A DNA stretch of 53,892 nt from assembly GCA_046303175.1 (NCBI GenBank), contig JBKCGW010000455.1:1-53892 (forward strand), in the 5' to 3' direction. The translations under genes and the position numbers were made by a program. Source of the stretch: Flavobacteriales bacterium (GTDB lineage: Bacteria; Bacteroidota; Bacteroidia; Flavobacteriales_D; Sanyastnellaceae). Shown here in pieces: positions 5,465 to 26,508 of the stretch; the first letter of the stretch is position 1, and each line of letters begins with the position of its first letter. A model generated the notes under the pieces. It had not been told where the DNA came from, ran no database searches, and worked only from the letters and a program-made list of their open reading frames with translations.

Positions 5465-5583
5465 AAACTGCAACTTTTCCGTTTTGGAAAACGTTGTGTA
5501 TAAAAAGCGCAAATGGGCAAAAGGGCGATGATGTTTTCGCCTGTCGAAAATGTAAATTGCCCATTCGCAAGAGAGATTTCAGA

Positions 5584-6633
5584 ATGAACAGGCAACGGAT
5601 CGTATGGTTAGTGTTTTTTGCTGTTTCAGCAATCTCGGGTCCGCGTGCCTTAGCGCAGGCATGTGCCAATGCGCTGAGCAATTACATCTGTGCAGATGAG
5701 CAACAACAGGTCGACTCGTTGAATGCTGAGTCCTATTTTAATGCTTGTATTTTTAACGAGGTTGCGTCCAATCAACTCAGCTACACCCAGTGGTATTCAT
5801 TTCACACCAACACAATTGCCGGTGTGGGAAACGTGAATATTGCGGTTGATTTCGTGGACTGCGATTATTCCAATCCGGGAACGGAGGACGTCAACGATTT
5901 TATCTATGTCACAGCATTTCCGGTTCAACCCGGAGAAGATCCTTGCGATGCATTGGCGTCGATTGCTGCAGATTGTTTCGGTTCGAATGAATCGTTTGTG
6001 TATTCGTTGAACGCCGGTTTGCTGCCCGACACGGATTACTTGGTGGTGGTGGGGTCGAATCACGAGCCGCAAGGTGGAAATTTGGCCGATCCATGTGCGT
6101 TCGACGTAACTATCAGCGGCAGTGCTCTTGGAATTGTGGCCAGTGTAAATCCGCTTTCTGTCGCACTAGGCGAATCGGCCTATTTGCAAGTGGAGGGAGC
6201 CGACAACGATTACCCGGTTCAATGGACGCCCGGTCAATACCTCGACGATCCAACGAGCCTCAACCCGGAAGTATTTGCCGAGGAGACCACTTCATTCCAG
6301 GTGAGTGGCCAGGTGGGCAATTGTCCGGCGACCGATGTTGTTTCGCTCACGATTGGATCGCCGATTGAAATATTTACCGCGTTTTCACCGAATAGCGATG
6401 GGTTTAACGATATATGGAATATTGGTGAGATAGAACGATTCCCAACATGTCAGATTGAGGTTTTTGATCGTTGGGGTCAAAGTGTTTTTAAGTCCGTTGG
6501 TTATGAGCAGCCGTGGGACGGCACTTTCAAAGGAAAATACCTTCCAACAGGCGCTTATTATTACGTGATAGAATTGAATTCACTCGAGGTAACTATACCC
6601 CCTATGACCGGGGTGGTCAGTATTGTGCATTAA
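5584..6633 (+). CDS. T9SS type B sorting domain (gliding motility-associated C-terminal domain) protein
   Basis: Start chosen at MNRQRIVWLVFFAVSAISGPRALAQ (signal peptide). The C-terminus FSPNSDGFNDIWNIGEIERFPTCQIEVFDRWGQSVFKSVGYEQPWDGTFKGKYLPTGAYYYVIEL is the CHU_C/type B CTD signature. Confidence 0.85.
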   Translation: MNRQRIVWLVFFAVSAISGPRALAQACANALSNYICADEQQQVDSLNAESYFNACIFNEVASNQLSYTQWYSFHTNTIAGVGNVNIAVDFVDCDYSNPGTEDVNDFIYVTAFPVQPGEDPCDALASIAADCFGSNESFVYSLNAGLLPDTDYLVVVGSNHEPQGGNLADPCAFDVTISGSALGIVASVNPLSVALGESAYLQVEGADNDYPVQWTPGQYLDDPTSLNPEVFAEETTSFQVSGQVGNCPATDVVSLTIGSPIEIFTAFSPNSDGFNDIWNIGEIERFPTCQIEVFDRWGQSVFKSVGYEQPWDGTFKGKYLPTGAYYYVIELNSLEVTIPPMTGVVSIVH

Positions 6634-6635
6634 AA

Positions 6636-7565
6636 ATGAAGAGGTATAACTGGATATGTTTGTTGCTTTTGCTTGCGGTAATGCCCGCAATGGCTCAGCA
6701 ACTGCCCCAATTTACCTACTTCACCTATAACTACATGCAATACAATCCGGCAGTTGTAGGCACGGCCCCTTGTCTCGATTTGAAGTTTGGCTTGCGCAGA
6801 CAATGGAAGGGATTTGAAGGCGCACCTACAACGGGTTTTGCCAATATCCATGGCAAGATTGGCAAGAAATCGGAGTTTCATTTTCATGGATTGGGAGCAA
6901 CCGTGGAAAACGACGATTCAGGACCATTCAACTATACAACCGTTCATTTGAATTATGCCTATCACATGAAGTTGGCAAACAAGTATTTTTTGTCAACGGG
7001 ACTGGGGTTAGGTTTTGCGCAGTATAGCATTGATTACGGAGAAATGAAGTTCGAGGACCAGTTGGCTGAACAAGCGATATATGGGATTGTGAACGACTTT
7101 GTATTTCCCATGTTCAATGCAGGCTTGTGGCTCTATCGTTCCGATCGCTTTTACGGAGTTTCCGTTCGCAGCCTGAACAATAAGTCTATCGATGGCCTAA
7201 CAGATACACAAGTCCGCAGACATTATTCGTTTGCCAATGGTTATGCAACCCGAATATCACAAGAGCTCACCTTCAAGCCGGCTTTCTTGATTAATTATGT
7301 GGGCAAGAGCCGACCCTCCATTGACGGGCAGTTGATACTTTCTTTTAAAGACATGGTGGACGTAGGCGTTGGAGCCCGCTCAGGTCATGGCTTTTCAGCC
7401 CTCTTGAAATTATCTGCGATACGTTACGTCACGATTGGTTATGCATATGATGTGACCATGAACAAGATTCGATACGTATCAGGAAGTACCCACGAAATTG
7501 TGGTAGGAATTCGAGCATGCAAAGAGGGCAACAAAATGTACGTCCCTTGTGCGGCCTATGATTGA
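6636..7565 (+). CDS. PorP/SprF family type IX secretion system membrane protein
   Basis: Signal peptide MKRYNWICLLLLLAVMPAMAQ is followed by QLPQFTYFTYNYMQYNPAVVG, the PorP/SprF N-terminal signature. The size suits a beta-barrel. The gene starts 2 nt after the stop of the type B CTD gene. Confidence 0.8.
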   Translation: MKRYNWICLLLLLAVMPAMAQQLPQFTYFTYNYMQYNPAVVGTAPCLDLKFGLRRQWKGFEGAPTTGFANIHGKIGKKSEFHFHGLGATVENDDSGPFNYTTVHLNYAYHMKLANKYFLSTGLGLGFAQYSIDYGEMKFEDQLAEQAIYGIVNDFVFPMFNAGLWLYRSDRFYGVSVRSLNNKSIDGLTDTQVRRHYSFANGYATRISQELTFKPAFLINYVGKSRPSIDGQLILSFKDMVDVGVGARSGHGFSALLKLSAIRYVTIGYAYDVTMNKIRYVSGSTHEIVVGIRACKEGNKMYVPCAAYD

Positions 7566-10788: not shown

Positions 10789-13700
10789 TTATCTCAAAAT
10801 TTGTACGTTCCCTTTGTATTCGGTTTTGATACCATAGGGAAGTTTGAGGATGTACCAATAGGTTCCTTCGCTGAGGTCATTTGCACGCCAGTCGTTGCGG
10901 TAGTTGGTGCTTTCATACACCTTGTCGCCCCAGCGATTGAAAATTGTCAACTCAGCACCGTTGTATTTTTCAAGTCCGCCGATTTCGAAGGTATCGTTTC
11001 CTTGAGCGCCGTTTGGAGTAAACACGTTTGGAATAAGTACTTCGCATGCGTTGGATTGTATTTGCCATGATGCTTGCGCAGTGCCGCAGCCATTGGTAAT
11101 GTTGGCGGTGAGAACTACCACTTCTCCAAGGCAGCTCTGTGGAACATTGTCGGCACAGTAGTCGAGCGCTGCGCCTGAAGTGTTGATGGAGAAACCGGTG
11201 CAGCTGGTTGTCCAGGTCACTGACGCGTCTTCGGCATCCGAAATCACCTCCAGGTTTTTACACTCGCGTGGACACAAGGCTAACAAATCGCTGCTACCCG
11301 AAGTGGTATTGGGGGCTGCTGAAATATTTACGTTAATGCACGCAGTAGAAGCAGAATTACAACCAAAGTTATCAGTTACGGTATAGCAGTATTCACCGTC
11401 CTGATCGGCCACAACGGTTGCGTTTTGTGAGTCCACCGGACCTTGCCATGAAGCACTGTAGTTCGTTGCATCAGCATATTGTACAGTGAGGGTTACTTGA
11501 TCGTCGTCGCACTCCAAAATAGAAGCAGCAGGTGCAGATGTGATAGTAGCTGCCACAACTCCGCTCACGTTTGCTGAAACCGGATTAGACTCGTCGCAAT
11601 CATTGGAAACGATTACAGTGTAAACACCGGGTGTAGTTACGTTCAGCGTAGATCCGGAATTGTTGCCTGGGTTCCAGTCGTATTGTAATTCCGGATTATC
11701 AAGGTTAGCGGGAATTGGATCGAGTGTAACGCTACCATTTTGACAAAGTGGCAAGTCTTGCAATGACGGCTCAGGCACATCGGGCTGGTAGGATACATTG
11801 AAAGAGTCACTGTAGGTGCCGCATGCATTCGTAATGCTGGCGGTTACGCTTGCATTGGTGTAATTGGTGTAAGGTCCCATTACAGCCGAAAGTCCGTCGG
11901 CTGAAGGAGTAACACCCGGGCCGTTCCATGAAATGGTGCCGTTGCCCGAAGGGTCATTGACCACAACCGATTGCTCGGCTGTTTCCGCGTCACACAAAGC
12001 TACCGGAAGACCCGGAGTAATGTTAATGCTGGGTGCTTGTGCATATTCGATGTTGTAGCAATAGTCGAAGGCACAGTTGGCATTGCTAAAGCATAGTTCG
12101 TATACACCGTATTGTGTGGGTGTCCAAACAGTAGTCATTTGCGAAGGATCGGAGAATGCCCATCCACCGGGACCATCTACGCTCCAGGTTCCTTCCAAAT
12201 CGGTAGCAAAGCAAGAAGAAGCACCCGACCACACAAGACCTGTGGTGAGCGGTGCAGGAATGATGGTTGGAGAACTTTGTCCGCAATTGATTACCCACAA
12301 CGAGTTGCCTTGGAAGTTGTTTCCGTTGGCGAAATATTCAATAGACACGCTATCGCCCGCGCCAATCATAATGTCATCGTAAAGTGTAAGAGCGCCGAAC
12401 GAGGTGAGGAAGTACTCTTCAACCGGGCCGCCATCTGCAGGGTAAACGTAGATGTTGATGAACGAACCTTGCCAACCGTTTTGGTTAGTGCTCAACGCAT
12501 AGATCACGAGGTTATCTTCCGGAGGAACAGAGTATCCGCAGAAGTCGAGTTCTTGTAAGCCATCGCATCGAATGCCGTTGTTATCATCGTTAGTTGGGCA
12601 TGGAGTTGAAGGCGAGGTAGTAACCAACTTGATATTGAATCCTTGACAACCCGCATCATCGGTTACCAAGATTTCATAGTTACCATTTACGTTACCTGTA
12701 ACCTGAGCACACGCCTCATCGAGGGGAGAACCCGGCACGAATTCACCATCATAGCCCGGTGAAATTTGCCATTGGTAGCTGGCGTAGTCTCCCAATACAC
12801 AGATAACGGTGTCGATACCCGGACAAATTTCAATAGGAATATTTCCACCTTCGAGTTGCGGAATGAAGTAGGGTGTAACATCAATAAAGGCAGTGGCTAC
12901 TGAAGAGCAGAATCCGAAGCTTCCCACAACGGTGATATTACCCGGCTGTGAAACATCAGCAGAAGTTCCTGATGCGCCGTTGCTCCAGCTGTATGAATCA
13001 AATCCATCCGTTGCTGTGAGCGTTGTAACCTGACCTGCGCATATGTTCAGTACACCGGTAATTTCGATAGGCGGAGCTTCCACATCTTCTACCAAAAACG
13101 TGTAGGTAACTGTGGTTGATGCCGCGGGACTTCCGTTATCGGTTGCAGTGATGGTTACCGTGTTGGAACCGATGTTTGAAGCCGATGCTGTAAATGTTGC
13201 GTTGTTGAGCACTGCTGCGTTTCCTGTTGTAGAGGTTGCAGAGAAACCTGTTGAGCTTTGAGTGAATGCGATGGAGGTCGACTGATTCGATTCGGGGCTT
13301 GTAAAGGCCAAGTTGAAATCGAACGATTCACCTACGCACATGGTGATGGTATCGCACGCTTCACCAACTACCACGGGAGGTTGGTTGGCAACGAAGTTAG
13401 TCACACCTGTATTGAACTCAATTACACGCCCATCCAGCCAATCAACGCCATCTTGGTTGTTGGGTTGCACGCCATAAGGGCCATCCCATGCGGTTGAGTT
13501 GCACAAATTGAAACGACCGAATGCATAGTGCTGTGTGCCTGAAGATCTGTCTGCTCCTACTACAGCGAAGTTATTGTTGGCTTGACATCCGCCGGTTGCA
13601 CCGCTAATTTGACTATTCACCCATTGCATGTCGAGGTAAACGAACTGCACGTTATTGCCACCGCCAATGACATTGCTGCCATCTGGTGTAATAATCATCT

Positions 13701-14400
13701 GGAAGGAATTCGTTTTGTCGGAGAAGTTCGGCCAGTAACCTACGTCGATGTAGTTGATGTAAAGGGCTTCCGGGGTAAGGTTATAGTAGATTTCACCACT
13801 CGCCCCAAAATCGAAGTCGGTCCAGAAACCTGCAATGTGGTTGTATTGTTGATTGGTCTCGGTGCCCAGTGGGTCCGGAAACGCCGAAGGTGTAAAGTCG
13901 ATGTAGCCGGTGTTACCGAGTACAATAGTTCCTTTGGTAGTGATTACAATCTGGTTGTAGTTCGTTCCGAAGAAGTTGAAGTTCCAGCCCAGGTTTATAG
14001 GAGCACTGAAGTTATCGGTGCTGTTACCGGGACTTCCCGGCCATTGAATCGGGTTTGGGTGTGTGTACTCGCTCGTAGGTTCAATCCAATAGCAGTTCGA
14101 TTCGCCTGAGGTTTGGCTGGTTCGCATCTGCTTGCGTGCTTGCTGGCTTTCGCGTTTCCATTCTGTTTTCAGTTGGGCAACACGATCGGCGTTGAAGCGA
14201 GGGTCTTTGGTGAAGCGGACCCAATCTTGCTTCGACATTTTTTGAAGGAATGGTTTACTATACAACTCTTCCTCCGTCATCTTCGGAGAGTAACGTGCAT
14301 TGAATGGAGCCGTGTAGTAGTGCTCTTGTGTGCGCTCTTGAGCAACGCTGGTGGCACACATCATCCAAGTGAACAGACCAAAAAGTAAAAATTTCTTCAT
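10789..14400 (-). CDS. large T9SS type B sorting domain adhesin-like protein
   Basis: Start at MKKFLLFGLFTWMMCATSVAQ. The body is about 1200 aa of Ig-like/Cys-containing repeats. The C-terminus VFTPNGAQGNDTFEIGGLEKYNGAELTIFNRWGDKVYESTNYRNDWRANDLSEGTYWYILKL is a type B CTD. Confidence 0.85.
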   Translation of the reverse strand: MKKFLLFGLFTWMMCATSVAQERTQEHYYTAPFNARYSPKMTEEELYSKPFLQKMSKQDWVRFTKDPRFNADRVAQLKTEWKRESQQARKQMRTSQTSGESNCYWIEPTSEYTHPNPIQWPGSPGNSTDNFSAPINLGWNFNFFGTNYNQIVITTKGTIVLGNTGYIDFTPSAFPDPLGTETNQQYNHIAGFWTDFDFGASGEIYYNLTPEALYINYIDVGYWPNFSDKTNSFQMIITPDGSNVIGGGNNVQFVYLDMQWVNSQISGATGGCQANNNFAVVGADRSSGTQHYAFGRFNLCNSTAWDGPYGVQPNNQDGVDWLDGRVIEFNTGVTNFVANQPPVVVGEACDTITMCVGESFDFNLAFTSPESNQSTSIAFTQSSTGFSATSTTGNAAVLNNATFTASASNIGSNTVTITATDNGSPAASTTVTYTFLVEDVEAPPIEITGVLNICAGQVTTLTATDGFDSYSWSNGASGTSADVSQPGNITVVGSFGFCSSVATAFIDVTPYFIPQLEGGNIPIEICPGIDTVICVLGDYASYQWQISPGYDGEFVPGSPLDEACAQVTGNVNGNYEILVTDDAGCQGFNIKLVTTSPSTPCPTNDDNNGIRCDGLQELDFCGYSVPPEDNLVIYALSTNQNGWQGSFINIYVYPADGGPVEEYFLTSFGALTLYDDIMIGAGDSVSIEYFANGNNFQGNSLWVINCGQSSPTIIPAPLTTGLVWSGASSCFATDLEGTWSVDGPGGWAFSDPSQMTTVWTPTQYGVYELCFSNANCAFDYCYNIEYAQAPSINITPGLPVALCDAETAEQSVVVNDPSGNGTISWNGPGVTPSADGLSAVMGPYTNYTNASVTASITNACGTYSDSFNVSYQPDVPEPSLQDLPLCQNGSVTLDPIPANLDNPELQYDWNPGNNSGSTLNVTTPGVYTVIVSNDCDESNPVSANVSGVVAATITSAPAASILECDDDQVTLTVQYADATNYSASWQGPVDSQNATVVADQDGEYCYTVTDNFGCNSASTACINVNISAAPNTTSGSSDLLALCPRECKNLEVISDAEDASVTWTTSCTGFSINTSGAALDYCADNVPQSCLGEVVVLTANITNGCGTAQASWQIQSNACEVLIPNVFTPNGAQGNDTFEIGGLEKYNGAELTIFNRWGDKVYESTNYRNDWRANDLSEGTYWYILKLPYGIKTEYKGNVQILR

Positions 14401-14450: not shown

Positions 14451-14458
14451 CAAATATA
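14451..14458 (-). promoter_or_regulatory. candidate Bacteroidota -7 promoter box (TATATTTG)
   Basis: Exact TAnnTTTG match on the minus strand, 51 nt upstream of the adhesin ATG at 14400. Confidence 0.4.
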
Positions 14459-14467: not shown

Positions 14468-15490
14468 TTATCGCTGCAGGTAAATGTAGCCTCTCTTTTC
14501 CACTGCCTTTTGTCGAAGATCGAGACCTGTAATTTGATAGAGATAATTACCTGAAGGTAGTTTTTCGTTTGTTTCACTTGAGCCATCCCAGGCAATCCCT
14601 CGAAATACCCGGTTTCCGCCTTGGTCAAAAATCTGTAGTTCGGTCAGCTCGATAAATCGGGCACTTTCCATTGGATCGAACCGGTCGTTTTTGCCGTCGC
14701 CATTCGGGGTGAAGATGGTTGGAATTATCAGCACAGGAGTTGGGAAGCACTCAATGCGCTTTTCAACCAACTCATTTTTCCCATTAGCATTCACCGTAAG
14801 TGTTACGCGGTAAGCGCCGGGTTCGTCGAATGAATGCTGAGGGCTCATTTCGGTGGATGATTCTCCATCACCGAAGTTCCATGAATAGCTCGAGGCGTTG
14901 GTCACCGATGGGATGAAGAAATACAGCAGCGGTTGCGAAGTAGCTTCGATGGAACTGAAGGTGGGTCTTTCAACAGCTGTTTCGGGAGTTTCTGCTAATT
15001 GGGCATCGACGATCGGGCTGGCTTGCTGTGTAGGCGTCTTTGGCTGGTTCTGTTGAGTTTCGGGCAAATCGGTTTTTCCTTCAAGCAGAGGGTTCATGGT
15101 GTTCCGAATCTCTGAAGTGGTTGTAGTCTCTTCTGATTCGAGAACGAGCGTATTCGAAGTTGTTGATTCGGGTTCAGCAATTACCTGAGTTTTCTGCTTT
15201 GACGCGATTGTATCGGCGTTCGCTACTGAGTACGCAGTATCCGCAGTGTATGGCGCAACATCGGCCGATGGGTTGCTCTCGGGCTGATTCTGAACCGATA
15301 GCCAAATGAAGGCAGCAACGAGTGCAGCAACAGAACTTCCAATCACAAGCAGAGACTTGCCGGCAAACCACGATGTGGAGGTTGGAGCGCTTGCTATCTG
15401 ACCCGAAACATGTTTCCACACATGCTCAGGGGGAACACTGGAGTGTTCCTTCAGCTTCGATTGCAGAATATGTTTTAGTTGCTCATCCAT
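14468..15490 (-). CDS. anti-sigma-factor-like membrane protein with PKD domain and T9SS type B sorting domain
   Basis: 340 aa. The ATG overlaps the sigma factor stop by 8 nt (ATGGATGA). The short N-terminal cytoplasmic segment (...PPEHVWKHVSGQI) is followed by one TM helix (LLVIGSSVAALVAAFIWLSV) and a ~110 aa Thr/Ser/Pro/Glu/Gln-rich linker. Then come a PKD-like segment (YSWNFGDGESSTEMSPQHSFDEPGAYRVTLTV) and a type B CTD (IFTPNGDGKNDRFDP...LPSGNYLYQITG). Confidence 0.7.
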   Translation of the reverse strand: MDEQLKHILQSKLKEHSSVPPEHVWKHVSGQIASAPTSTSWFAGKSLLVIGSSVAALVAAFIWLSVQNQPESNPSADVAPYTADTAYSVANADTIASKQKTQVIAEPESTTSNTLVLESEETTTTSEIRNTMNPLLEGKTDLPETQQNQPKTPTQQASPIVDAQLAETPETAVERPTFSSIEATSQPLLYFFIPSVTNASSYSWNFGDGESSTEMSPQHSFDEPGAYRVTLTVNANGKNELVEKRIECFPTPVLIIPTIFTPNGDGKNDRFDPMESARFIELTELQIFDQGGNRVFRGIAWDGSSETNEKLPSGNYLYQITGLDLRQKAVEKRGYIYLQR

Positions 15491-16031
15491 TCGCTGTATG
15501 GTCGTCGGGCAATCCGTTTATGCGGGATTTTAGCCATCCCTTGGCTTTGTGGTATTGTGTTTTGGAAGTACTTTCGCTGATGTCTAGCATCGAGGCTATT
15601 TCCTGATGTGCATAGCCCTCAATTGCGAAAAGGTTGAACACGGTTCTGTATCCCTCGGGCATTCGCTGAATGAGTTGAACCAAATCGTCTTCATTCATTT
15701 TGCCCAATACATCCATCTCCGCACTCGACAAGTCCACCATTGAATCGGCAGGAATATGGGTCACTTTGCCGGCTTTGCTTTTCAGCATGTTCAGCGAAGT
15801 ATTGACCATTATCCTGCGAATCCACGCTCCCAATGGACCATCACCTTTCCAGGAATCGAGGTACCGAAAAACGCGGATAAACCCTTCTTGTAGGGCATCC
15901 TGCGCATCTTCGTCGCGAGCGAAATACCTTCGACAAACAGCATACATAACTCCCGAAAAACGCTTCCAAAGAAGTTGCTGAGCCGATTGATCCCCTTTCA
16001 AACAGCGTTCTGCCAGTTCACGGTCGGTCAT
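15483..16031 (-). CDS. RNA polymerase ECF-type sigma-70 family factor
   Basis: 182 aa. Region 2 (DAQDALQEGFIRVFRYLDSW) and region 4 HTH (EGYRTVFNLFAIEGYAHQEIASMLDISESTSKTQYHKAKGWL) are both present. Confidence 0.9.
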   Translation of the reverse strand: MTDRELAERCLKGDQSAQQLLWKRFSGVMYAVCRRYFARDEDAQDALQEGFIRVFRYLDSWKGDGPLGAWIRRIMVNTSLNMLKSKAGKVTHIPADSMVDLSSAEMDVLGKMNEDDLVQLIQRMPEGYRTVFNLFAIEGYAHQEIASMLDISESTSKTQYHKAKGWLKSRINGLPDDHTANG

Positions 16032-16105
16032 AGCACTCTTCGTGGTGGGTATGATAAGGGATGGTTGAAGAAAGTTGCCTGAGGGATCAAAAAAAGTGAA
16101 AGGTG

Positions 16106-19100
16106 TTATCGAACGATGAACACGTTGCCCTCGAAGCTTTTGGTCTTCCCGGTCTCGAGGTCATCTACGTCAATTTTCCAGAGGTAGTAACCATCTTGAA
16201 TGTAGTAGGTGCCACCATCGTATCCGCCGGTCCACGCCTTGCCAACTTCTTCCGTGTAAAACACCACATCACCCCATCGATTGAAAACCCAGAAGCGGTA
16301 GCTGCCTTCGAGTTCTCCATTCACAACGGGCATGAATACATCATTGAGACCATCTCCGTCGGGAGTGAACGTATTGGGCACAAATACCTGCAACACATTC
16401 TCAACGAATACATCCTGGCAAAGGGTGTCCAAACATCCATACTCATTGCCTGCGGTCAAACAAACCAGATAAGGTTCGGTCGATTCAATATCCGGGAAAG
16501 TCCAGGTTGGATTGGGGAGAGCGCTTTCACCGGCATTGTAGAAGTTCCAGTAAATGGTATCGGCACCTGCCGTTAAATTCTGGAACTGAACCTCGCGATT
16601 CAAAATATCGACGGGTTGTGGATCCCAGGTGAAATCGACTTCCGGATAAGGTCGAATCGTAATGGGTGTTGAAAGTGTATCGGATGCTGTGCAGCCAAAC
16701 TCGGAAGTAATTGTGATGGAGGGGAAGTACGTTCCCGGAGCTGTATAGACTACTGAAGTGTCTCCGCAATAAATCAATTGAGTACCATTGCCGAGTGACC
16801 ATATGCAGGTGCTCAAATCGTTGTAGTTGGTATCAAGAAGAGTGTAGTAGAAACCAATGGTGTCGGGGAAGCAATTGCCTCCCTCGTCGGCATCCATGAT
16901 AGGCTCGGGGGTGTCATGCACCGTAACCCAAAGTGTATCTGAAATGCTGGTAAGCGGACAGTTTTCATCCGTAACTCGAATTTCGAAAATCTCGCTAAAC
17001 AGGAAGCACTCTGTAATAGTGTCTTGTGATGCGATAAGAGTGGGTGTTAAGTCGACCACATCATTTAGCTCATACCACTCAATAAGTAGGTTTCCTGTAC
17101 CGCCTGTTGCCAATGCTGTTAATTCTTCGCAGTTGTATTGACACGTATGCAGGGTGTCAAGACCATTTTGCACAAATAAAGCGACATTGGATGAAATGGT
17201 TCCAACCGCTGTAATGGTGTCGGAAGAACAACCTATTGCATCAAGAGCGTAGAAGAATAGGGTTGTGTCTTGAGAAAGTAAAACAGTAAGCACTTGGTTT
17301 GCGCTTTCGTTCGTTGTTCCTACGAGGCATGTGCTGAGGTCTTCACAGCCGTACCAGTAGGTAGTGAAATTGCCTGCGCCCCCGCTAGCCTCCGCATCGA
17401 ATGTAATAGGGTAATTGGGACAACCCAGGATAGCCGGTGGATTGGCTGCAATGAATATTTCAGGAGAGTCTGGATCAATCGTGAAAGAGGTATCTGCCGA
17501 GCAAACCTGACCGCTGTTAAGGAGAATGTTGATCGTTAAATCGTAGGTGCCAATACCCAAGTTGGAGAAAACGAAAGGAGCATTTTCAGCAATGGAAACA
17601 ACGGTTCCGTTTTCGCTCAGGATGTATTGGGTTGCATCCGGATTATTCCCTTCTACCACACCTTCCGTTTCATTGAAGCAGAAAGGGTATGGTTGATCAG
17701 TATCGGCAATTACGTATTCCTGTTCGCGCACATTGATGGTGAAATCGGCTGAAGCTTCGCATCCTTGCGCATCAACCACCAACAGAGTGTGATTTTCCGG
17801 GTCGTCGAAGCAAATAGGATCAATGGCACTATTGCCATCGATGGTTGCCGTAAATGCATTGTTGAAGGCACCCAGAACATCGAAGTTAATATCCTGCGAT
17901 GTTTCGTTGATACAAAGTCCATTGCACATATCAGGCGGATAGACCAAGTTGATGATTTCAACGGGATCATTTACTTCAATCGCAATGGTTTCCTCGGTGC
18001 TACAGGAAATCGAACCGAAATCTTCAGAAGCGGTTACTTCAAAAACTTCGCTGGCTGCTGGATCAACATCTACAACCGCATTGTTGGTTGCACTTGTGAA
18101 AGATGATGAAGCTGTCCAAGTGTAGGTGTAAGTGCCTCCTGCAGTCGGAACAGCGGTAAGCGTTGCAACATTGTTAGGTGCATCGAAACACAGTATATCA
18201 TCTGAAGCCGTTACGTTGATGCTTGGGTTTGGATGAATCGTTACAATTACTTCATCGCTGTTGGAGCAAACACCATCGGTAACTGAAAGTGTATAAGTGT
18301 AGGGGCTGTTGAGTGAGTTGTTGATTGTGAGAGAAGGTTGGGCTTCGTCTGACTGGCCTGCTGCAATCCCGGCCGAGGGTGTCCACGCATAGGTAACACC
18401 ATTCACGGCAGGTGTTCCAAGCTGAACCGGCAATCCTGAGCACTGCGCAACGTCGGAACCGGCATCTGCCGTGGGCACGGGCAACTCGATGGCCTCAAAA
18501 ATGTCGGGGGTGTTGTTGACACAACCGTGCGTATCGGTTATACTAACCAGGGTATAGGTGCCCGGTGCGTCAATGGAAATTTCGTTGTTGCTGATTGTCG
18601 GTGGATTAGCAGGGTCGGGGCCTGTGAGTGCGACCGTAAATGGTCCATCACCGGTTGTGCTAAAGCTCGCATTAATTGCAGGCTCATTGGGACAGTAGCT
18701 TTCGCTGTTGCTGAGCCATGAAGCAGAAACCGCAGGAAAAACACTGAGGGTGGATGTTTCATTGACGTTGGCTACACAGCCGAAATTGTCTGTTACCTGA
18801 AGAATCTGATAGTCTCCGGGAACGTCGGTGCAATACTGATCATTCAGAAGCAGGTTGGCAACCGTTTCGTTCGCCGCAACATTCGGTACGTTCACCACCA
18901 TCGAAAACGGTTCTTCTCCCGTGAATTGAACGTCGAAGCAATGCGTCAGCCCACCGCAAACAGTGGCGTCGGTGCTGATGGTTACTGCGGGTAACGGGTG
19001 TATCACAACATCAACAGAACCTGATGCGGTACCTAAGCAGTTTTGAGCGCTGTTGGTGAGCGACTCAACAGCAAATGTTCCGCTTTGTGTAGCATTGAAG

Positions 19101-22100
19101 GTGTATGGGTTCAAAGCGGGTACAACAATCGATGGCTGATTCGCGCCGTCGATGCTGTAAACAAATGTCCACGGGCCATTGCCGGTGAAATCTACTTCCA
19201 ATGAAACCGTTTGGCCTGCGCAGGCGTCAACCCCCGAAGGTGCCGAAATAGTTGCGGTTCCTGCAACATACCAAACAACCGATTGGGTGTTGGAAGAGAA
19301 TTGGATATTCGGATTGGTTTCATTAACACAACCGGAACCATCGTTGTTTCCAACCACACACGAGATGTAATAAGTGGTTCCACTAACTACAACACCGGCG
19401 CCCGAAATCGCTCCGAACGAAAGTGGAGTATTAGCATCACCAAAAATCGCATCACCGCATGAGCGCGCTATTTCTGAACCTAGCGCATCAGCAGGGTTGG
19501 AATGCAACACAAACATGAAGGCGTCGTTGGCATCGGCTGTATAGGCTGTGCTTTGTGTGGCTGTAGCTTGTGCAGGCGATGCGGCGGGTGAACAGATGCT
19601 CAGCGCACTTGCGGTCATAACACCCCCATCGGTAGTGGTAGGACACGTGAAGCCGGCATCGGTCATGATGACACTATTGCAGTTGTAGAAATCATTGAAC
19701 GTCCACGATCCTCCGGTTCCGCCGGATGGCATCGATGCGGTGGTAAACACGTTGGAGGCGAAAGCACCACCCACTCCACCCGGAGCTTCTGTGTAAGGCG
19801 ATGATCCGCCGGTGATGGTATACTCAATGGTGTAGTTTTCACCTACGTTGTCGCACACCAAGTCGGTTTGTGCTACTTGAATATCTGCGCGAATGTTTAC
19901 GACAATTGTTTCATCAACTTGATCGAAACAGGCCGGTGCTGAGGTAAAATAGACTTGATCTAATTCGAGACTGAAGTTGTTCGTGGCCGTTATGGTTTCG
20001 ATAAATGAAGAGGACTCGTTATTGAACGTATTCACGCCAACATCAGGTGTGCCAATGAATTCATAGCTATAGTTGTTGCCTGCGGGTGTGACTTCTACTT
20101 CAATGTCGATGGGGTCGCCTGCGCACACATCCACCGGACTGGCAAGGGCATTTTCTCCGTTGATGGTGAATGAAACCAGTGTTGGCAGTGGGTTAATAAC
20201 CACATCTACGCATTCACCGGTTATAGAGCTGGTGCAGTTGACATCGCTTACGCTTGTGATGCAATATTCACCTGCGGCTGTCAAGTTCCAAACGAAGATG
20301 TAGTTGGGATTGGCGGGGTTATCAGCAATGTTGAGGTCGGCTTGGGCAACACCATCCAGCGTGTATTCTACCACCCAAGGACCATCGCCCGTAAGGGTAA
20401 GTTGTACAACCGCATTGTTACCAGCGCAGGCCGATGCAGTGAAGTTATCGGGAAGTGTTGCTGTTGGATTCGCGTTCGTGTTCACGTTCACAGAAGCATT
20501 GCTTGCATCGGTGCTCGGGCAGGCCGGAGCAGTTGTGTAGGCGACCGATTCTATATCGTAGGCAACCAATCCTGCTGTTGTTGGATCGGGCACATCGATA
20601 CTTCCGTTATCAGCAACCACCACCGGCGGTTGGTTCGTTCCGCCAATGGAATAGGTAATGGAGTAACTTCCCGGATCACTATGGCTTAAAAAAAGCTCGA
20701 GCGCCTCGCCCACACACAGCGGACTAACAGCGTCAAACGATGAGGTGACAAGTGCCCGCGAGTTAATAGTTACATCTTGGGGTACGGTTATAGGGTCGGA
20801 AACACAACCGTTTGCATCTCGCACTTGCAAAACAGACACGGTCGTATTACTGGCAATAAGTGTCGTATAGTCGTAAGGGTCGGTAACATCCACCAAGTCG
20901 GGAGCACCTGCAATGGGGTTTGCAATCCAAACATCGAAAGGCGCCAATCCTGCTGTAAAATCGATTTCAACGGTTGCGTTCTCGCCCTCGCAAACAATCG
21001 TGGGAGCACTAAGTGTAAATTCAGGTCCGGCTGTTTCACCAATGGTTGCGCTTCCCGTGGCATCGCAGCCTGATACCGGGTCGATAACCGTAACGGTATA
21101 AAGGGCACCGGCGAGTGTTCCTTGCAAGTTGTTTTGGTCTTCCTGACCATTAACGATTCCGGCTCCGCCCGCTCCGGCAACCCAGTTGTAGGTTAGGTTG
21201 GCAGAATTGGTTCCGAAAGCTGTAAGGTCAATAGAACCCGGAGTACCGCACGATTCGTCAATTGCGTCGAGTTGCAAGCGATGCAGCGATACGTCCACAG
21301 TAATGAAATCTTCACTGGCGCATGAGCCGGTATTTAAGGGCGTACTCACGCGATAGGTGGTAGTGCTGTCGGGAGAAACGTTTTGAGTGGCTACGTTTTG
21401 GGCAAGTGCAGGGGTAGCGTCACCGCCCGGCAAAACTTCCCATGTATACTGGTTTCCGGAACCCGCACCTTCTGCCGTGAGCGTGAAGGCGTCACCTTGG
21501 CAAATTACTGCCGGTGTAGAGGTTATATTGATGTTGGGGAGAATCGAAATCTGGATTTCGATATCGTCATCATCCGGTATAGGGCATGCATCATCCTCGG
21601 CGTGCAACTGCAGTGTATAGGGAGTAGCACTTGCCATTCCGGGTGTTGTTTGCAACTCAAAGGTGGCAACACCCGGTGCTAGGCTGCTTTGCGTCATGGT
21701 AATTGCAGAAAGCGCCGGAGCCGCGGGAGAAAATTGATAGGTAATGGTGATGTTGCGAGATAGATTGGGGTTCGATGCCTGAACCGTGAAGCTAAGAAGA
21801 TTGCCTGCGCAAACTGAAACCACATCGGGTGCCGCTCCTGGACTATCGGTGTAAGTAACATCTGTACCGGTCGATGTAACAGGAATGGGATCGAAAGCGG
21901 TGTCTGTGAGTGAGCAGTCGCGCACGGCGATGGGTAAGCAATATTGCAGAGTGCCGGCATAGGAGCCTCCTTCGGTGAGTTCGATGTCGATGGGAATGAT
22001 GTAAACAAGCGTTGGCGAGTTTGCGGGAAGCGCAGGTGGAGTCCAGCTTATTATACCTGTAGTCGAATTGATGCTGAGGCCGGCCGGTATGCTGAAACCG

Positions 22101-22786
22101 GGGATGGCAATAGAAGAATTGGGAGTTGCTCCGGTGGTAAGTGGCGTGCCCAAGGTGTAAGTAGCTGTCACACCCGCCGGCAATGCAAGTTCAACATCGT
22201 GCTGTTCTGCAAATGCAGAGCAGAAATACGATACGAAGTTTCCTGCTGATTGGGGTAGAATGTTATTTAAACCACAGACAGTTGAAGCGGTGTTGATTTC
22301 TGACTCGATATAAGCATCCTGAAGAAAAACCGCATCCGCATTTTCGAAATAAAAACTCCAATCCAGAGCATTGAAATGCGCCGACCAAATGCAGCCGGCC
22401 GCCAATGTTACTTGCGTTTCATACACAATTTTTTTAATACCAAGGTTTGCGCTAGCCGCATTGTTGCACGAGCTGTTGAGCAGTTCGGTTGGACACAAGT
22501 CGGACACTTCGGTTGTGCTGGTGCTAGCCGCTGAAGCGGAGAAAGAATTGAATGAAGGTCCTGCGCATGAGGCATCAGGAGCGAACACAATATCAACAAA
22601 ACCGGGGTATTGTGCTGTTGATCCTGCTCCGTAGCAGTCAACGTATAGATTTAATGAGACGTTGTATTGATCACCCCCTAAACAGTTCCAAGTGATACCG
22701 CCACCTAAAACGGACTGCGCCTGCATGCTTGCGGCTGCAATGAGGAAAATGAATATTGCTGCAATGCGTGATTGTTGCTTCAACAT
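16106..22786 (-). CDS. giant T9SS type B sorting domain adhesin-like protein (~2226 aa)
   Basis: The ORF runs to 22828. I prefer the start MLKQQSRIAAIFIFLIAAASMQAQ at 22786. The body is a long series of Ig-like repeats with a PKD-like segment near the C-terminus. The CTD is FVPNTFTPDGDGLNDVFMPVVNGELEGSYRFWVFNRWGDVVFYTEE...GYYLWKIDV. Confidence 0.85.
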   Translation of the reverse strand: MLKQQSRIAAIFIFLIAAASMQAQSVLGGGITWNCLGGDQYNVSLNLYVDCYGAGSTAQYPGFVDIVFAPDASCAGPSFNSFSASAASTSTTEVSDLCPTELLNSSCNNAASANLGIKKIVYETQVTLAAGCIWSAHFNALDWSFYFENADAVFLQDAYIESEINTASTVCGLNNILPQSAGNFVSYFCSAFAEQHDVELALPAGVTATYTLGTPLTTGATPNSSIAIPGFSIPAGLSINSTTGIISWTPPALPANSPTLVYIIPIDIELTEGGSYAGTLQYCLPIAVRDCSLTDTAFDPIPVTSTGTDVTYTDSPGAAPDVVSVCAGNLLSFTVQASNPNLSRNITITYQFSPAAPALSAITMTQSSLAPGVATFELQTTPGMASATPYTLQLHAEDDACPIPDDDDIEIQISILPNINITSTPAVICQGDAFTLTAEGAGSGNQYTWEVLPGGDATPALAQNVATQNVSPDSTTTYRVSTPLNTGSCASEDFITVDVSLHRLQLDAIDESCGTPGSIDLTAFGTNSANLTYNWVAGAGGAGIVNGQEDQNNLQGTLAGALYTVTVIDPVSGCDATGSATIGETAGPEFTLSAPTIVCEGENATVEIDFTAGLAPFDVWIANPIAGAPDLVDVTDPYDYTTLIASNTTVSVLQVRDANGCVSDPITVPQDVTINSRALVTSSFDAVSPLCVGEALELFLSHSDPGSYSITYSIGGTNQPPVVVADNGSIDVPDPTTAGLVAYDIESVAYTTAPACPSTDASNASVNVNTNANPTATLPDNFTASACAGNNAVVQLTLTGDGPWVVEYTLDGVAQADLNIADNPANPNYIFVWNLTAAGEYCITSVSDVNCTSSITGECVDVVINPLPTLVSFTINGENALASPVDVCAGDPIDIEVEVTPAGNNYSYEFIGTPDVGVNTFNNESSSFIETITATNNFSLELDQVYFTSAPACFDQVDETIVVNIRADIQVAQTDLVCDNVGENYTIEYTITGGSSPYTEAPGGVGGAFASNVFTTASMPSGGTGGSWTFNDFYNCNSVIMTDAGFTCPTTTDGGVMTASALSICSPAASPAQATATQSTAYTADANDAFMFVLHSNPADALGSEIARSCGDAIFGDANTPLSFGAISGAGVVVSGTTYYISCVVGNNDGSGCVNETNPNIQFSSNTQSVVWYVAGTATISAPSGVDACAGQTVSLEVDFTGNGPWTFVYSIDGANQPSIVVPALNPYTFNATQSGTFAVESLTNSAQNCLGTASGSVDVVIHPLPAVTISTDATVCGGLTHCFDVQFTGEEPFSMVVNVPNVAANETVANLLLNDQYCTDVPGDYQILQVTDNFGCVANVNETSTLSVFPAVSASWLSNSESYCPNEPAINASFSTTGDGPFTVALTGPDPANPPTISNNEISIDAPGTYTLVSITDTHGCVNNTPDIFEAIELPVPTADAGSDVAQCSGLPVQLGTPAVNGVTYAWTPSAGIAAGQSDEAQPSLTINNSLNSPYTYTLSVTDGVCSNSDEVIVTIHPNPSINVTASDDILCFDAPNNVATLTAVPTAGGTYTYTWTASSSFTSATNNAVVDVDPAASEVFEVTASEDFGSISCSTEETIAIEVNDPVEIINLVYPPDMCNGLCINETSQDINFDVLGAFNNAFTATIDGNSAIDPICFDDPENHTLLVVDAQGCEASADFTINVREQEYVIADTDQPYPFCFNETEGVVEGNNPDATQYILSENGTVVSIAENAPFVFSNLGIGTYDLTINILLNSGQVCSADTSFTIDPDSPEIFIAANPPAILGCPNYPITFDAEASGGAGNFTTYWYGCEDLSTCLVGTTNESANQVLTVLLSQDTTLFFYALDAIGCSSDTITAVGTISSNVALFVQNGLDTLHTCQYNCEELTALATGGTGNLLIEWYELNDVVDLTPTLIASQDTITECFLFSEIFEIRVTDENCPLTSISDTLWVTVHDTPEPIMDADEGGNCFPDTIGFYYTLLDTNYNDLSTCIWSLGNGTQLIYCGDTSVVYTAPGTYFPSITITSEFGCTASDTLSTPITIRPYPEVDFTWDPQPVDILNREVQFQNLTAGADTIYWNFYNAGESALPNPTWTFPDIESTEPYLVCLTAGNEYGCLDTLCQDVFVENVLQVFVPNTFTPDGDGLNDVFMPVVNGELEGSYRFWVFNRWGDVVFYTEEVGKAWTGGYDGGTYYIQDGYYLWKIDVDDLETGKTKSFEGNVFIVR

Positions 22787-23024
22787 GCGGTTCGTGGGTG
22801 ATTCCGGAATAGTGTTCGTGCTTACCATGTCAAGGTTAACTCAAAATCGCGGCGTTTCAATTGGTTTGGCAAAGCGTTATCAACAGAATTAAATGAATTA
22901 ATAGCTCATCAACACTGCTTAGTCGGGCCGTGAAAATAATCGGTTTAGCGATTCATCAAGGCAAAATCGAGCATTCTTTGCTAAATCCTAACATGAAGAC
23001 TACGAATTCAAGAAAAAGATTGCA

Positions 23025-23058
23025 TCAAAAAAACAAAAGCCGCCAATTGGCGGCTTTT
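23025..23058 (-). terminator. rho-independent terminator
   Basis: On the minus strand GCCGCCAATTGGCGGC is followed by TTTTGTTTTTTT, about 20 nt after the stop of the 23077..26331 gene. Confidence 0.8.
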
Positions 23059-23076
23059 GAGTGCATATCCGATACA

Positions 23077-26000
23077 TTAAAACTTAATGAAACGCTTGCT
23101 AATTGTTGTTGAGCCGAATTCCAATCGAATGGAATAAGATCCGGGTGCAAGTGAGTTGAGGGGCAATTGAATGTCGCCTGCAAAAGGTGTTTTGTTGGTA
23201 TGAATCATACGACCCGATGCATCCAGTATGCTCCAGCCACTGCCCGGAGAAGAAGTTCGAATAGTAAGCATGTCTCCTGCAGGATTTGGGAATACCTCGA
23301 AAGACACTTCCGGCTCATGAACGCCGAGCGTGTAAATCGCATCGACTGTTTGTGTCTGTGTGTCGGTGCAACCATCGATGGTTGTAGAGAGTGATACAGA
23401 AAGTTGCGGTGTAATCGAGAGGAAGTCGTATGTGTAGGTGTGTGAAGGAGATTGCTCGTTGCTAGTAGCGCCATCACCAAAATCCCATGCGTAGGTGCCG
23501 ATATTTCCTGTATTCGTGAATACGACCTCTTGTCCGCTGTTTCCAAACTCAACAGGATTCGGCATAGTGAATGATGCTATAACTTGTTCTGAAATATCGA
23601 GCAGGTAGCGTGGATAGAATTTATAACCCACGCTGAACGGCGATGTTTCGTCCATTTGAGCGCCTATACCCACAGCTGTGAAATGACCTTCGAGTGCCGG
23701 AATTGAGAACATGTCGCTATTGAAATCAATTCGCATCACATTTTCATTCGTTCCATCCGTTACTTCTACATCAAACCCACTGCCGAATTGACCCCACTGC
23801 GATGGATCGACCAGGGTAACGCACTCGAGTTTTACCATGCGGCTTTCGTGTTCTTCGCCGAGCGTGCTCACCGTTTGGGGAATATCGAGCGGATTGCCGT
23901 TGCTAATTACTTCAACAGAACTGGCTAGAAATTCGGCCATGCCAAAAAACTGACTCACTTGTCCTTCCACCAAAATGCTATCGCCTTCTACCGGAACGTA
24001 GCCTAAGTTGTCGCTAGCAGAGAAAATGCGAATACCATCGGTACCATCGATAAGCGTGAATTCCAAGCCGCTTGGATTGAAATTAACTCCGTGCACAATA
24101 CCGCCCAACGCGCAGAATGTGTTCAAACTATCGAGGGCGCCAAGCGAGTTTGTGGTGGTAATCTCGGCAATTGGATACAGTGGGAAACTTTGGTCGTTGT
24201 CTTGAATCGTAATGGTGATGAATTCATTGACGAAAATTGCATTTCCGGCAACATCCACGATAGTGAGTGTGATTGTCTCGAAAAGCTCCTGCGTAGCATC
24301 ATCAACAATTTCAAGCATGAACGATTCTTCTGTATTGTTTGAATCGAAAATGAATTGAATGGGGAATGTGGTGGTGTAGTCTGATCCTGCAGTAGCAGAG
24401 GCAGAAACAAGCTGGACCGTCACAGGCGTCGTGTTAATTACGTTGTATGCACTTACCACAATGTTGGCAAACCCGGCCGATTCATTCACCTGTATGGCTG
24501 TCTGATTGAATGTTAAATAGGGCTGTTGTGTGCAGGCTAGCGCTTCATGCATGCCAAGGTTGCTGTAATCGGTGTTCACATAATTCAACCACTGCCCCGC
24601 TGAAAGTTCCCAATTGGTGCTGGGTGCGTTTACTTCGAACTTCCTGCGCAAGGTTTGATTCATGGTAGAAGCAAGTCCGAAGGTCCATTCATTCACGGTA
24701 TCACCAACAACGCCGATAATGTCGATGGCCTCTAATTGATATGCTAACACGATGGCATCGTTACCGTTGAAATTATTCATGGATGCAGTTGTGTTATCGG
24801 CTAACGCTAAAAGTGCTCCGTCGGCTTGAGAGCTGCATACTACGTACGTTTCGCCTGGCTGCAGAGTATCCCCAGGGGTGTCGAGAACGATAAACGAAGT
24901 GTCACCGTTGTTGTAGGAAAACAAATCGTAGTCGTCCAGATCAACCGGAAAAGGAGTAGCGTTGTAAAGCTCAATCGCTTTGCTGGAGCCATTTCCTTCA
25001 ATATACTCCGAGATGATTACACGCGAACATCCATCGGCAGGAAAGCAGTCGATGTTGCGGATATCGATATAATTTTCAGATATAGCGACGCAGCCGCCAT
25101 CGGCCTGAATGTCGAAAACCAAATCGGTGGGTTGAACGGTATTCGGATTAAGGTTACCGAAATACGAAACGCCAAAAATGTGATATTCGCCGAAGCCAAG
25201 CGAGCTGAGATCATAGGATCCAACGCTTAATTCCTGGTAAATCTGATTGTCTGCATTGGTAAGGAAGTAGCGGTATTGGTCTGCAACTCCTTCCACGGTG
25301 TGCGTAAAATTGATTACTCCCGGATTGTTGATTTGACAAAAGCTGATGTAAGCCAAACCATTATCAAGGGTGACCACCCCTGCATCGCAACCGGTTAGAG
25401 CACAGTCTTCGCGCACCACTACCAGAAAGTTGCTCGAAAGGGCCAGGCAAAGGTCAGAACTCGCTCCTGAAACTGGCATACCTGCAGCCAACGTGCTCTC
25501 ATCGAGCAACCCGTTGTAAGAGATTCCGAAAATATGATAGGTGCCGGCGGCGTATAAATCCATGTCAATCAAACCCCAGTCGTTCCACTCAAGCACGAGG
25601 TCAGAACTATCGGTGAGTACAAAAATGTAATTGTCGCCAAACATGCTGGAAGAACTCAGCGAAAGCGGCATGTTGGTAGAATCAGTACATTGATTAAGGT
25701 TGCCGCTTTGAAGTAGAAGCTCAGCACCTGAGCAATCAGGTACATTGGTGTAACCGGGCGTGGGCAATTGAAGGATGTATGAAGTGTGGTCTGAAATCAA
25801 ACCGCCATCCGGTACGCGCGAGAATGACAAAGGTGAGTTTCCTTCTATGTCAAGGATTGTTTGTCCGGGGGTTAGCGCCGCACTCAATCCATCATCCGGT
25901 CCATCGCCTGAGGTATACACCAAGGCATCTACAATGTTGGAATTCGAAACGGGTGTTCCCGGAACCCATTCAATAGCATCGCCTACATAAAGAGCAATTC

Positions 26001-26331: not shown

Positions 26332-26508
26332 GGTCGTTACAAGCGATTTAAATCGGCTCGCAATTTCGATGATTTTTAAGAACAGCCCGTTGTTTTTATT
26401 CAACAACAGCTAGGTTATATCCTGTTGTCAGAATAAAAATGTTGAATGCCAAAAGAATCACTTGCACTGACCTTGAACTATCAGTACACAACCTTCAATC
26501 TTGAACTA

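Follow-up and report, generated by a model that had tools for sequence, protein, structure and literature searches.

An ECF sigma factor paired with a putative anti-sigma protein that ends in a divergent type B T9SS sorting domain

Introduction

How Bacteroidota match the expression of large type IX secretion system (T9SS) cargo, such as gliding adhesins and enzymes, to their capacity to secrete it is to our knowledge largely unknown, the only studied route that we know of being PorXY-SigP/PorA in Porphyromonas gingivalis. The locus described here raises the question of whether a T9SS sorting domain may itself report to a sigma factor. It lies on a 53,892-nt stretch of DNA from a Flavobacteriales bacterium (contig JBKCGW010000455.1 of GenBank assembly GCA_046303175.1), which at its full length we call the window. 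There, a gene for an extracytoplasmic function (ECF) sigma factor is followed by one for a predicted single-pass membrane protein (the partner), whose C-terminal part joins a PKD domain to a type B T9SS C-terminal domain (CTD). A sequence-only reading of the window had taken the two for a sigma/anti-sigma pair and the partner for a secretion-status sensor. Our own reading, to which we give a probability of about one half, is that the pair is an autoregulated ECF sigma factor and anti-sigma-like protein, and that the partner's CTD would sense the type B secretion route and release the sigma factor for transcription of its own operon, cargo included.

The sigma gene and its partner across lineages

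The two open reading frames (ORFs) lie where the sequence-only reading had placed them (Table 1), with the 8-nt overlap between sigma stop and partner start that it had read in the sequence (ATGGATGA). The sigma protein matched Sigma70_r2 (E=2.4e-13, 50.1 bits) and Sigma70_r4_2 (E=3e-14, 52.8 bits) in a Pfam scan and scored 93.7 bits with TIGR02937, for which the cut-off is 42.9; its best specific NCBIfam matches all fell below cut-off. With sigma-2 and sigma-4 domains only, and at the small size of 182 aa, it belongs to the ECF (group IV) class.

A sigma gene of the same clade stood directly upstream of the partner gene in every locus that we inspected, namely in seven clades with CTD-bearing partners and in 11 of 11 sister loci whose partner has no CTD, and the two genes often overlapped. 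The window sigma was 35-72% identical to the sigmas upstream of all examined proteins that share the partner's conserved N-terminal element (the N-module, described below). What had been called the usual sigma/anti-sigma arrangement, an N-module and a transmembrane helix encoded directly downstream of a same-clade sigma, thus recurs among ECF-adjacent single-pass CTD proteins of Bacteroidota, and the co-occurrence on which the sequence-only reading hung was conserved in all loci examined. In three orthologous sub-lineages (L001, L004 and L007), with partners 31-40% identical to the window protein, a whole gene block is kept, consisting of a giant CHU_C gene, the ECF sigma gene, the partner gene, a ~1200-aa NIDO/CHU_C gene and radA. 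A second family (313 aa), with the N-terminal motif, a transmembrane helix, an acidic linker and CHU_C and no PKD domain, lies in an unrelated neighbourhood and overlaps by 11 nt its own ECF sigma gene, the product of which is 40% identical to the window sigma. The relatives come mostly from Flavobacteriales metagenome-assembled genomes (MAGs).

A genome scan with the full-length partner alignment gave, among the matches listed, 80 loci in named genomes that encode generic PKD-CHU_C proteins, and no orthologues. Searched by tblastn for relatives of the window sigma, five of these 80 listed loci (from a Bacteroidota MAG, Flavobacteriales NORP67, palsa_971, Vicingus and BATAC.274) proved to have a same-clade sigma immediately upstream. 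In each of the five the ORF downstream of the sigma has the N-terminal motif, one transmembrane helix and a linker of low complexity, together with one or two PKD domains and a CTD of the FTPNGDG type. The other ~75 generic PKD-CHU_C cargo loci among the matches listed, which form a control set, lacked the sigma-partner arrangement. When a hidden Markov model (HMM) of the N-module was run on 1840 ORFs from the loci, every match was the ORF directly downstream of a sigma gene, and no other candidate regulator was conserved beside the sigma in the loci compared. Adjacent to an ECF sigma gene across lineages, and presumed co-transcribed with it, the partner gene has the context of an anti-sigma gene.

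Architecture of the partner protein

An alignment of 17 full-length relatives (31-99% identity) divides the partner into a conserved N-terminal stretch of ~30 aa, a segment of which only the hydrophobic character is conserved, a hypervariable linker and a strongly conserved PKD-CTD region. The N-terminal stretch reads MDEKLRHILKEKL..HES.VP.HLWE.VS, with P21, W25 and V28 invariant, and conservation extends over the 44 aa ahead of the hydrophobic segment. The AlphaFold2 (AF2) model computed from this alignment has helices at residues 2-14 and 23-32 and then the transmembrane helix; residues ~66-172 are unstructured (pLDDT ~30), and the PKD domain and the CTD form beta-sandwiches with pLDDT above 90.

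The hydrophobic segment (~20 residues) is flanked by charges of +1 before and -2 after, and is followed by an acidic region without a polar c-region. Across all 17 family members the 15 residues before it are net positive and the 15 after it zero or negative, which points to an N-in/C-out topology. Because the segment is preceded by 44 to 200 conserved residues (one to four copies of the module) and obeys the positive-inside rule, its reading as a signal anchor, not a typical signal peptide, is supported; by this heuristic (conserved 44-aa region, ~20-aa helix, positive-inside polarity) the partner is not predicted to have a cleavable Sec signal peptide, unlike the neighbouring cargo proteins with their short classical ones. 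The short cytoplasmic N-terminus and single helix of the sequence-only reading, which had counted a cleaved signal peptide here as fatal to it, are thereby upheld as predictions, and its Thr/Ser/Pro/Glu/Gln-rich linker of ~110 aa measures 109 aa with 54% of these residues.

The PKD-like domain was likewise recovered, with PKD_4 at 49.7 bits (cut-off 27), PKD at 37.1 bits, the AF2 beta-sandwich and similarity by Foldseek to PKD1 domains (E ~1e-4 and, taken relative to the target, a TM-score of 0.74); against the PDB, Foldseek found generic PKD/Ig folds only for the partner and no T9SS-specific match. The C-terminus passes the type B models over practically their full lengths: CHU_C gives 54.8 bits against a cut-off of 27 and is matched from profile position 2 to 86 of 86, and TIGR04131 gives 39.3 bits against 35, matched from position 3 to 85 of 85. 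The complete type B CTD that had been read there therefore stands as to coverage and score, and needs amending in that it is without the Arg-Trp of the RWG motif typical of cargo. Together the PKD domain and CTD make up a folded periplasmic part of ~165 aa, without any passenger domain.

The predicted cytoplasmic part consists of 44 aa with two predicted helices and no Cys. The partner had no match in Pfam or NCBIfam at E<=0.1 to a class I ASD or ZAS domain (zf-HC2, RskA and the like), which has four helices in about 80-90 aa and often an HxxxCxxC motif; it had no FecR (PF04773) match, and no TonB-dependent receptor gene was found among its neighbours. The N-module is modelled by neither Pfam nor NCBIfam.

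The N-module family

When 1.84 billion cluster representatives were searched exhaustively with HMMER for a 70-position profile of the N-module and transmembrane helix, 667 of them matched (E<=1e-3). Domains were counted in the top matches of the 667, a sample biased towards relatives of the query proteins: among the 123 scanned, 89 had CHU_C, 11 PKD, eight an outer-membrane beta-barrel domain and none a sigma domain. Exactly one transmembrane helix was predicted in 111 of 121 module-bearing representatives, preceded by one to four copies of the N-module, two being commonest. A word-indexed search with the N-terminal profile returned six short fragments, all of the second (313-aa) family. By inspection we distinguish three architectures, in which the N-module and helix are joined to (A) a type B CTD, (B) an outer-membrane beta-barrel or (C) a conserved tail.

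Within architecture A, a subfamily with two module copies comprises at least 53 clusters, all with CHU_C, which NCBI labels only 'gliding motility-associated C-terminal domain-containing protein'. Three of its members lie on long contigs, where the sigma gene is followed by the partner gene (gaps of +4, +1 and -17 nt) and then by two NIDO-PKD-CHU_C genes; the cargo genes of this subfamily begin 6-37 nt after the partner gene, a spacing that implies co-transcription of partner and cargo. Architecture C (L096-L106, e.g. L105:3001-3978), found by a search with a 4-sequence alignment, has no CTD and ends in the conserved tail W.K.F..WR.K...NF.DI.E. Its same-clade sigma, 39-47% identical to the window sigma, ends ~30 nt upstream in 11/11 loci, and its N-module and helix region shows sub-threshold similarity to the NCBIfam 'anti-sigma factor' model NF052375 (E=6e-9, 36 bits against a cut-off of 100). 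Since CTD-less and CTD-bearing architectures are both sigma-adjacent, the sigma-coupled element is the N-module with its transmembrane helix, the C-terminal domain being exchangeable. The family is large, unannotated and widespread in uncultured Bacteroidota, mainly Flavobacteriales.

Architecture B was seen in P0056, P0058, P0062, P0065, P0069, P0130, P0142, P0177 and P0191, in which two to four cytoplasmic N-modules and one transmembrane helix are followed, at the C-terminus, by an outer-membrane beta-barrel (OMP_b-brl_2) that weakly resembles PorT/SprT. As far as we know, it would be unusual for one polypeptide to combine an inner-membrane anchor with an outer-membrane barrel. A metagenome scan with P0058 gave no match.

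Candidate promoters of the sigma operon and its cargo genes

In all 10 lineages compared, an element (T/G)GCAAC(C/T)-N16-18-(G/A)TC lies ~40 nt before the sigma start. Its instance in the window is the only exact match to this pattern there, and also the top weight-matrix match, though as part of the training set. With the AAC-containing -35 element and the CGT/GTC-type -10 element of autoregulated ECF promoters, it makes a classical candidate promoter and suggests autoregulation of the sigma gene.

A candidate site for the 2240-aa cargo gene follows closely on a terminator, ~195 nt upstream of the ATG of the giant gene; it ranks 4th of ~108,000 window positions, is the best untrained intergenic match and is kept in L001, L004 and L007, all of which is suggestive only of a sigma-dependent promoter of that gene. 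Another operon (L063) has a comparable site after the stop codon of the partner gene, ahead of the surface-protein gene that comes next. For the downstream NIDO cargo gene of the window, a housekeeping promoter of its own may add to read-through from the sigma operon: directly after the partner stop codon lies TATATTTG, which matches the -7 box consensus of the primary sigma of Bacteroidota, TAnnTTTG (PMC9723704), and TTATATTTGCA is conserved in the window, L001, L004 and L007.

The 248-nt region upstream of the 2240-aa gene (22829-23076, minus strand) is ~70% identical across loci despite the 31-40% protein identity. Its equivalents are L001:420-668, L004:401-649 and L007:431-773, and its invariant blocks are GATGCAATCTTT, GTAGTC, TTATTTTCAC, CTGTTGATAA and CCTTGACATG. 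In a scan of the region no Rfam model came near its gathering score; the region may serve as an extended regulatory leader that contains two or more promoters.

Surrounding genes

The pair lies between two giant genes on its own strand, both of which had been called type B adhesins. That the pair stands between two type B cargo genes is a conserved feature. Both have CHU_C (47 and 79 bits), but only the 1210-aa protein reaches the TIGR04131 cut-off of 35 (49.1 bits), the 2240-aa protein scoring 30.1. The position of the 2240-aa gene is kept in L001, L004 and L007, while the link to a downstream NIDO/CHU_C cargo gene recurs in distant operons: the NIDO protein of the window is homologous to the NIDO-PKD-CHU_C cargo of the two-copy subfamily, with 34% identity across 400 aa (E=8e-45) to the one encoded in the distant operon L093. 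Its ORF was listed with a TTG start at 14421; it most likely starts at the ATG at 14400, which yields a canonical signal peptide (MKKFLLFGLFTWMMCATSVAQ).

The window encodes three type A and four type B CTD proteins with one PorP/SprF gene, and as a whole is a chromosomal region rich in T9SS cargo. The single shuttle gene overlaps a CHU_C cargo gene, and this cargo/shuttle pair is found at the same relative position in two of the orthologous sub-lineages (L001:15935-17017 and L004:15957-17026); for the orphan type B CTDs encoded in the sigma block, this shuttle (6513-7565) is the obvious candidate to engage them at the outer membrane. The type A cargo genes (CTD Por_Secre_tail) encode an LTD/Calx-beta/PKD protein (23077-26406, minus strand), an Ig-repeat protein (40616-42652, plus strand) and a SprB-repeat protein (42781-46824, plus strand), and had no ECF-type site above background.

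Two further gene pairs of the window lie apart from these. Tandem paralogous TonB_C genes (127-891 and 908-1702, plus strand) have 29 identical nt in common, TGCAACTTTCCTTTTCATTTGTGAGTTTA, which occur on the minus strand at 418 and 1199 and indicate a recent tandem duplication. A GAF-domain gene (29426-30004, plus strand) overlaps by 8 nt a 526-aa Big_5/DUF2141 gene (29997-31577, plus strand); considered as a second regulator/sensor pair, these two were rejected, as they are not a sigma pair.

Table 1. Coordinates in the window of the sigma/partner locus, its promoter candidates and associated cargo genes
Feature	Position	Strand	Evidence
ECF (group IV) sigma-70 factor gene, 182 aa	15483..16031	-	Sigma70_r2, Sigma70_r4_2, TIGR02937 above cut-offs
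Anti-sigma-like single-pass membrane protein gene (partner), 340 aa, C-terminal PKD + type B T9SS CTD	14468..15490	-	ORF list, HMM scans, AF2
Partner: cytoplasmic N-module and proposed sigma-binding element, aa 1-34; motif L..HE..VP..W..V, two short helices	15389..15490	-	alignment, AF2, profile search
Partner: single transmembrane helix, aa 45-66, predicted N-in/C-out signal anchor	15293..15358	-	hydropathy scan, positive-inside polarity
Partner: disordered periplasmic linker, aa 67-175, hypervariable among orthologues	14966..15292	-	alignment, AF2 pLDDT ~30
Partner: PKD domain, aa 176-249	14744..14965	-	PKD_4 and PKD above cut-offs, AF2, Foldseek
Partner: type B T9SS CTD, aa 250-340, RWG-less subclass (FDQGG for F[ND]RWG)	14471..14743	-	CHU_C, TIGR04131, column comparison
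ECF-type promoter candidate upstream of sigma gene, GGCAACTTT-N-TTATCAT	16051..16079	-	10/10 lineage comparison, weight matrix
Type B cargo gene upstream, encoding a 2240-aa surface protein with Ig repeats and a CHU_C CTD	16106..22828	-	CHU_C 47 bits
Candidate ECF-type promoter of 2240-aa cargo gene, TGCAATCTTT-N-GTAGTCT	22996..23024	-	weight matrix, conservation
TATATTTG box directly after partner stop codon, before NIDO cargo gene	14451..14458	-	matches TAnnTTTG
Downstream NIDO-like surface protein, type B CTD, cargo, 1210 aa as listed ORF	10789..14400	-	CHU_C 79 bits, TIGR04131 49.1 bits
CHU_C cargo gene 5494-6633 (379 aa) + overlapping PorP/SprF-like shuttle gene 6513-7565	5494..7565	+	CHU_C 85 bits, PorP_SprF 209.8 bits

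Discussion

That the partner acts as an anti-sigma factor, by putative binding of the sigma, is well supported by context. Under our preferred reading its two-helix cytoplasmic module would hold the sigma at the inner membrane, which the protein is predicted to cross once, and the linker of ~110 aa, long enough to span the periplasm, would present the passenger-less PKD and CTD unit towards the outer membrane. There the CTD would act as the sensory element by engaging part of the type B route, for which a PorP/SprF-like shuttle and the SprA translocon are the two candidates. Once this engagement changes, the partner would be removed by proteolysis and the sigma released, the signal presumably running from CTD to sigma, and free sigma would then transcribe its own operon with the downstream NIDO/CHU_C cargo gene, and probably the upstream giant cargo gene too.

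Known systems supply parts of such a scheme. In FecI/FecR/FecA, an ECF sigma is co-transcribed with a single-pass inner-membrane regulator, the periplasmic C-terminus of which reaches an outer-membrane beta-barrel, and regulated proteolysis takes part in release. The trans-envelope logic of an ECF sigma with a single-pass inner-membrane regulator would be the same here, but the partner has neither a FecR domain nor a TonB-dependent transducer, its N-terminal module is different, its presumed outer-membrane partner would be a PorP/SprF-like shuttle or SprA and its sensor domain is a secretion signal. The inhibitor FlgM carries the export signal of the very machine whose late substrates its sigma, sigma-28, controls, the same secretion-checkpoint logic; FlgM, however, is soluble and fully exported by a type III system, whereas the partner would be membrane-anchored and directed to the T9SS, with export perhaps impossible given its RWG-less CTD. 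RseA/sigma-E and other anti-sigma systems controlled by regulated intramembrane proteolysis have a single-pass N-in regulator with a small cytoplasmic sigma-binding part and a periplasmic sensing part, encoded in an autoregulated ECF operon. The partner, with its predicted helices, shares this topology and operon layout, and its ~34-aa N-module, modelled as two helices, is similar in size to the short class II anti-sigma factors of the CnrY type, yet no sequence similarity to RseA or to class II anti-sigma families was detected in Pfam, NCBIfam or PDB sequence searches, the module may be repeated one to four times and the periplasmic domain is unrelated.

On the secretion side, the partner resembles type B cargo such as SprB/SprF and PG1035/PorP (PMC9143113, PMC12618676) in its C-terminal TIGR04131/CHU_C domain preceded by an Ig-like domain and in a unit size within 150-235 aa, and differs from it in having no cleavable signal peptide, passenger, adjacent porP/sprF gene, RWG Arg-Trp or last-strand Gly. 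In the PorA-PorXY-SigP system of P. gingivalis, a small CTD protein relays T9SS or surface information to an ECF sigma that controls T9SS-related genes (PMC7712824). There too a CTD-bearing protein is linked to an ECF sigma; PorA, however, is soluble cargo, has a signal peptide and a type A CTD, acts through the two-component PorY/PorX and not by sigma binding, is not encoded beside sigP, and regulates genes of the machinery rather than of cargo. The partner is not a member of the FecR, FlgM or PorA families, and just as the sequence-only reading knew of no described sigma/anti-sigma pair of this architecture, we found no description in the full-text literature of an anti-sigma factor carrying a T9SS CTD.

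That the partner may sense secretion status is a reasonable inference. The anti-sigma-like role, the signal anchor and the CTD model agree with the earlier proposal; its T9SS part is complicated by the CTD itself. We aligned 138 unique CTDs of N-module proteins and, from cargo, 88 unique CTDs. Common to the two classes are PNxF[TS]PNGDGxND, W[DN]G (100% in both), G.Y.Y and a terminal L.R. Several results weigh against our reading. At the hairpin where cargo has R-W-G (R 89%, W 84%, G 99%), the sigma-linked CTDs have K/Q/E, then T/S/K, then G/N, with R and W near zero (FDQGG in the window partner in place of F[ND]RWG), and a last-strand Gly present in 94% of cargo CTDs is found in 22% of theirs. 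The partner CTD is no closer to the cargo CTDs of its own operon than to others, which rules out the idea that it mimics the former. No porP/sprF gene stands directly next to the pair, the nearest (6513-7565, plus strand) following another CHU_C gene, and without a cognate porP/sprF directly downstream, which non-orphan substrates commonly have, the partner would be an orphan by genetic criteria. For the N-module, no curated anti-sigma model of Pfam or NCBIfam scored above threshold and no solved structure was matched in a sequence search of the PDB. The candidate promoter of the giant cargo gene, with a score of 15.7 inside the range of shuffle maxima (13.8-21.3), is not significant alone.

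The sigma-linked CTDs form a distinct, divergent subclass of type B CTD, which may attach to components of the T9SS and not be translocated, or may interact with something else. A Sec signal peptide stands at the start of all T9SS substrates known so far, and a functional type B signal comprises 150-235 aa and depends on a PorP/SprF-like shuttle that is cognate to it (PMC12618676); the size agrees with that of the partner's whole folded periplasmic part. Mutagenesis of the SprB type B CTD showed all five of its conserved motifs to be needed for secretion (PMC12618676), motifs of which RWG may or may not be one, and type B CTDs stay uncleaved and bound to PorP-like outer-membrane barrels (PMC9143113). 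The RWG-less signature fits a domain that docks and is not translocated, and fits equally well a domain re-purposed away from the T9SS. On the docking side we offer, as a tentative and rather doubtful elaboration, that the partner is a tethered pseudo-cargo: the T9SS or a PorP/SprF-like shuttle would capture the RWG-less CTD and be unable to free it from its inner-membrane anchor, so that engagement, or the proton-driven pull of GldLM, would expose the linker to proteolysis, and intramembrane cleavage would free the sigma.

Re-purposing leads to the main rival, which we regard as unlikely though serious: a genuine sigma/anti-sigma pair in which PKD and CTD are a recycled beta-sandwich sensor for a periplasmic ligand or protein unrelated to the T9SS machinery (such as misfolded or accumulating cargo, or a cell-wall component), the likeness to a sorting signal being historical. 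The loss of the cargo-typical Arg-Trp and last-strand Gly across the 138 CTDs favours it, as do TIGR04131 scores near or below cut-off in several members (39.3 in the window, 24.7 in P0089, 28 in L061), the missing adjacent porP/sprF gene and the joining of the N-module to other C-terminal domains in sister architectures, as expected of exchangeable sensors. It leaves aside, however, the strict retention of the other type B hallmarks and the presence of type B cargo genes in nearly all the operons; the long disordered linker fits a reach to the outer membrane, and the barrel of architecture B, with its weak PorT/SprT-like similarity, makes outer-membrane targeting look like a shared theme.

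Two more readings dispute the anti-sigma role, or the anchor itself. The partner might be a T9SS-related envelope protein, a tether or accessory of the neighbouring adhesins, and the first member of the regulon of a sigma controlled otherwise; its co-transcription with cargo genes and the want of an ASD/ZAS match agree with this. We nevertheless hold it to be distinctly improbable, given the translational coupling or overlap with the sigma in almost all loci, the sigma adjacency of the module even with a quite different C-terminal domain and no cargo nearby, the weak similarity to NF052375 and the fact that no other candidate regulator is conserved beside the sigma. Least probable by far is an ordinary secreted type B cargo, the N-terminus of which would be an extended cleavable signal peptide like the ESPR extension of autotransporters. 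Small residues inside the hydrophobic segment (e.g. VAA, GLA) could form a signal-peptidase site, and a Sec signal peptide at the start is what the known substrates would lead one to expect; but 44 to ~200 conserved residues in one to four repeated modules precede a ~20-residue segment with an acidic region and no polar c-region behind it, neighbouring cargo has short classical signal peptides, and the strict sigma adjacency, CTD-less relatives included, would be left without a reason.

Coming back to our preferred reading, ECF sigma/anti-sigma signalling is already known, and what is new here is the cytoplasmic module and the unprecedented sensor domain. If the partner is indeed a tethered pseudo-cargo, type B adhesin genes would be transcribed under the direct control of how the secretion machine is running, through a membrane-anchored analogue of the FlgM checkpoint that is widespread in environmental Bacteroidota, and the sister proteins that end in an outer-membrane barrel would use the same envelope-spanning design. 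In any case the partner physically joins a putative sigma-regulating module to a T9SS sorting domain, encoded with cargo genes, in hundreds of protein clusters. Should the CTD report to the sigma, this would constitute a direct and genetically tractable link between secretion and transcription and would establish a 35-aa repeat, in which a Trp is invariant, as a new anti-sigma module. The natural subclass of non-cargo type B CTDs could then help to separate the determinants of recognition from those of translocation, and the annotation of a large protein family, now known only by its gliding motility-associated C-terminal domain, would be corrected.

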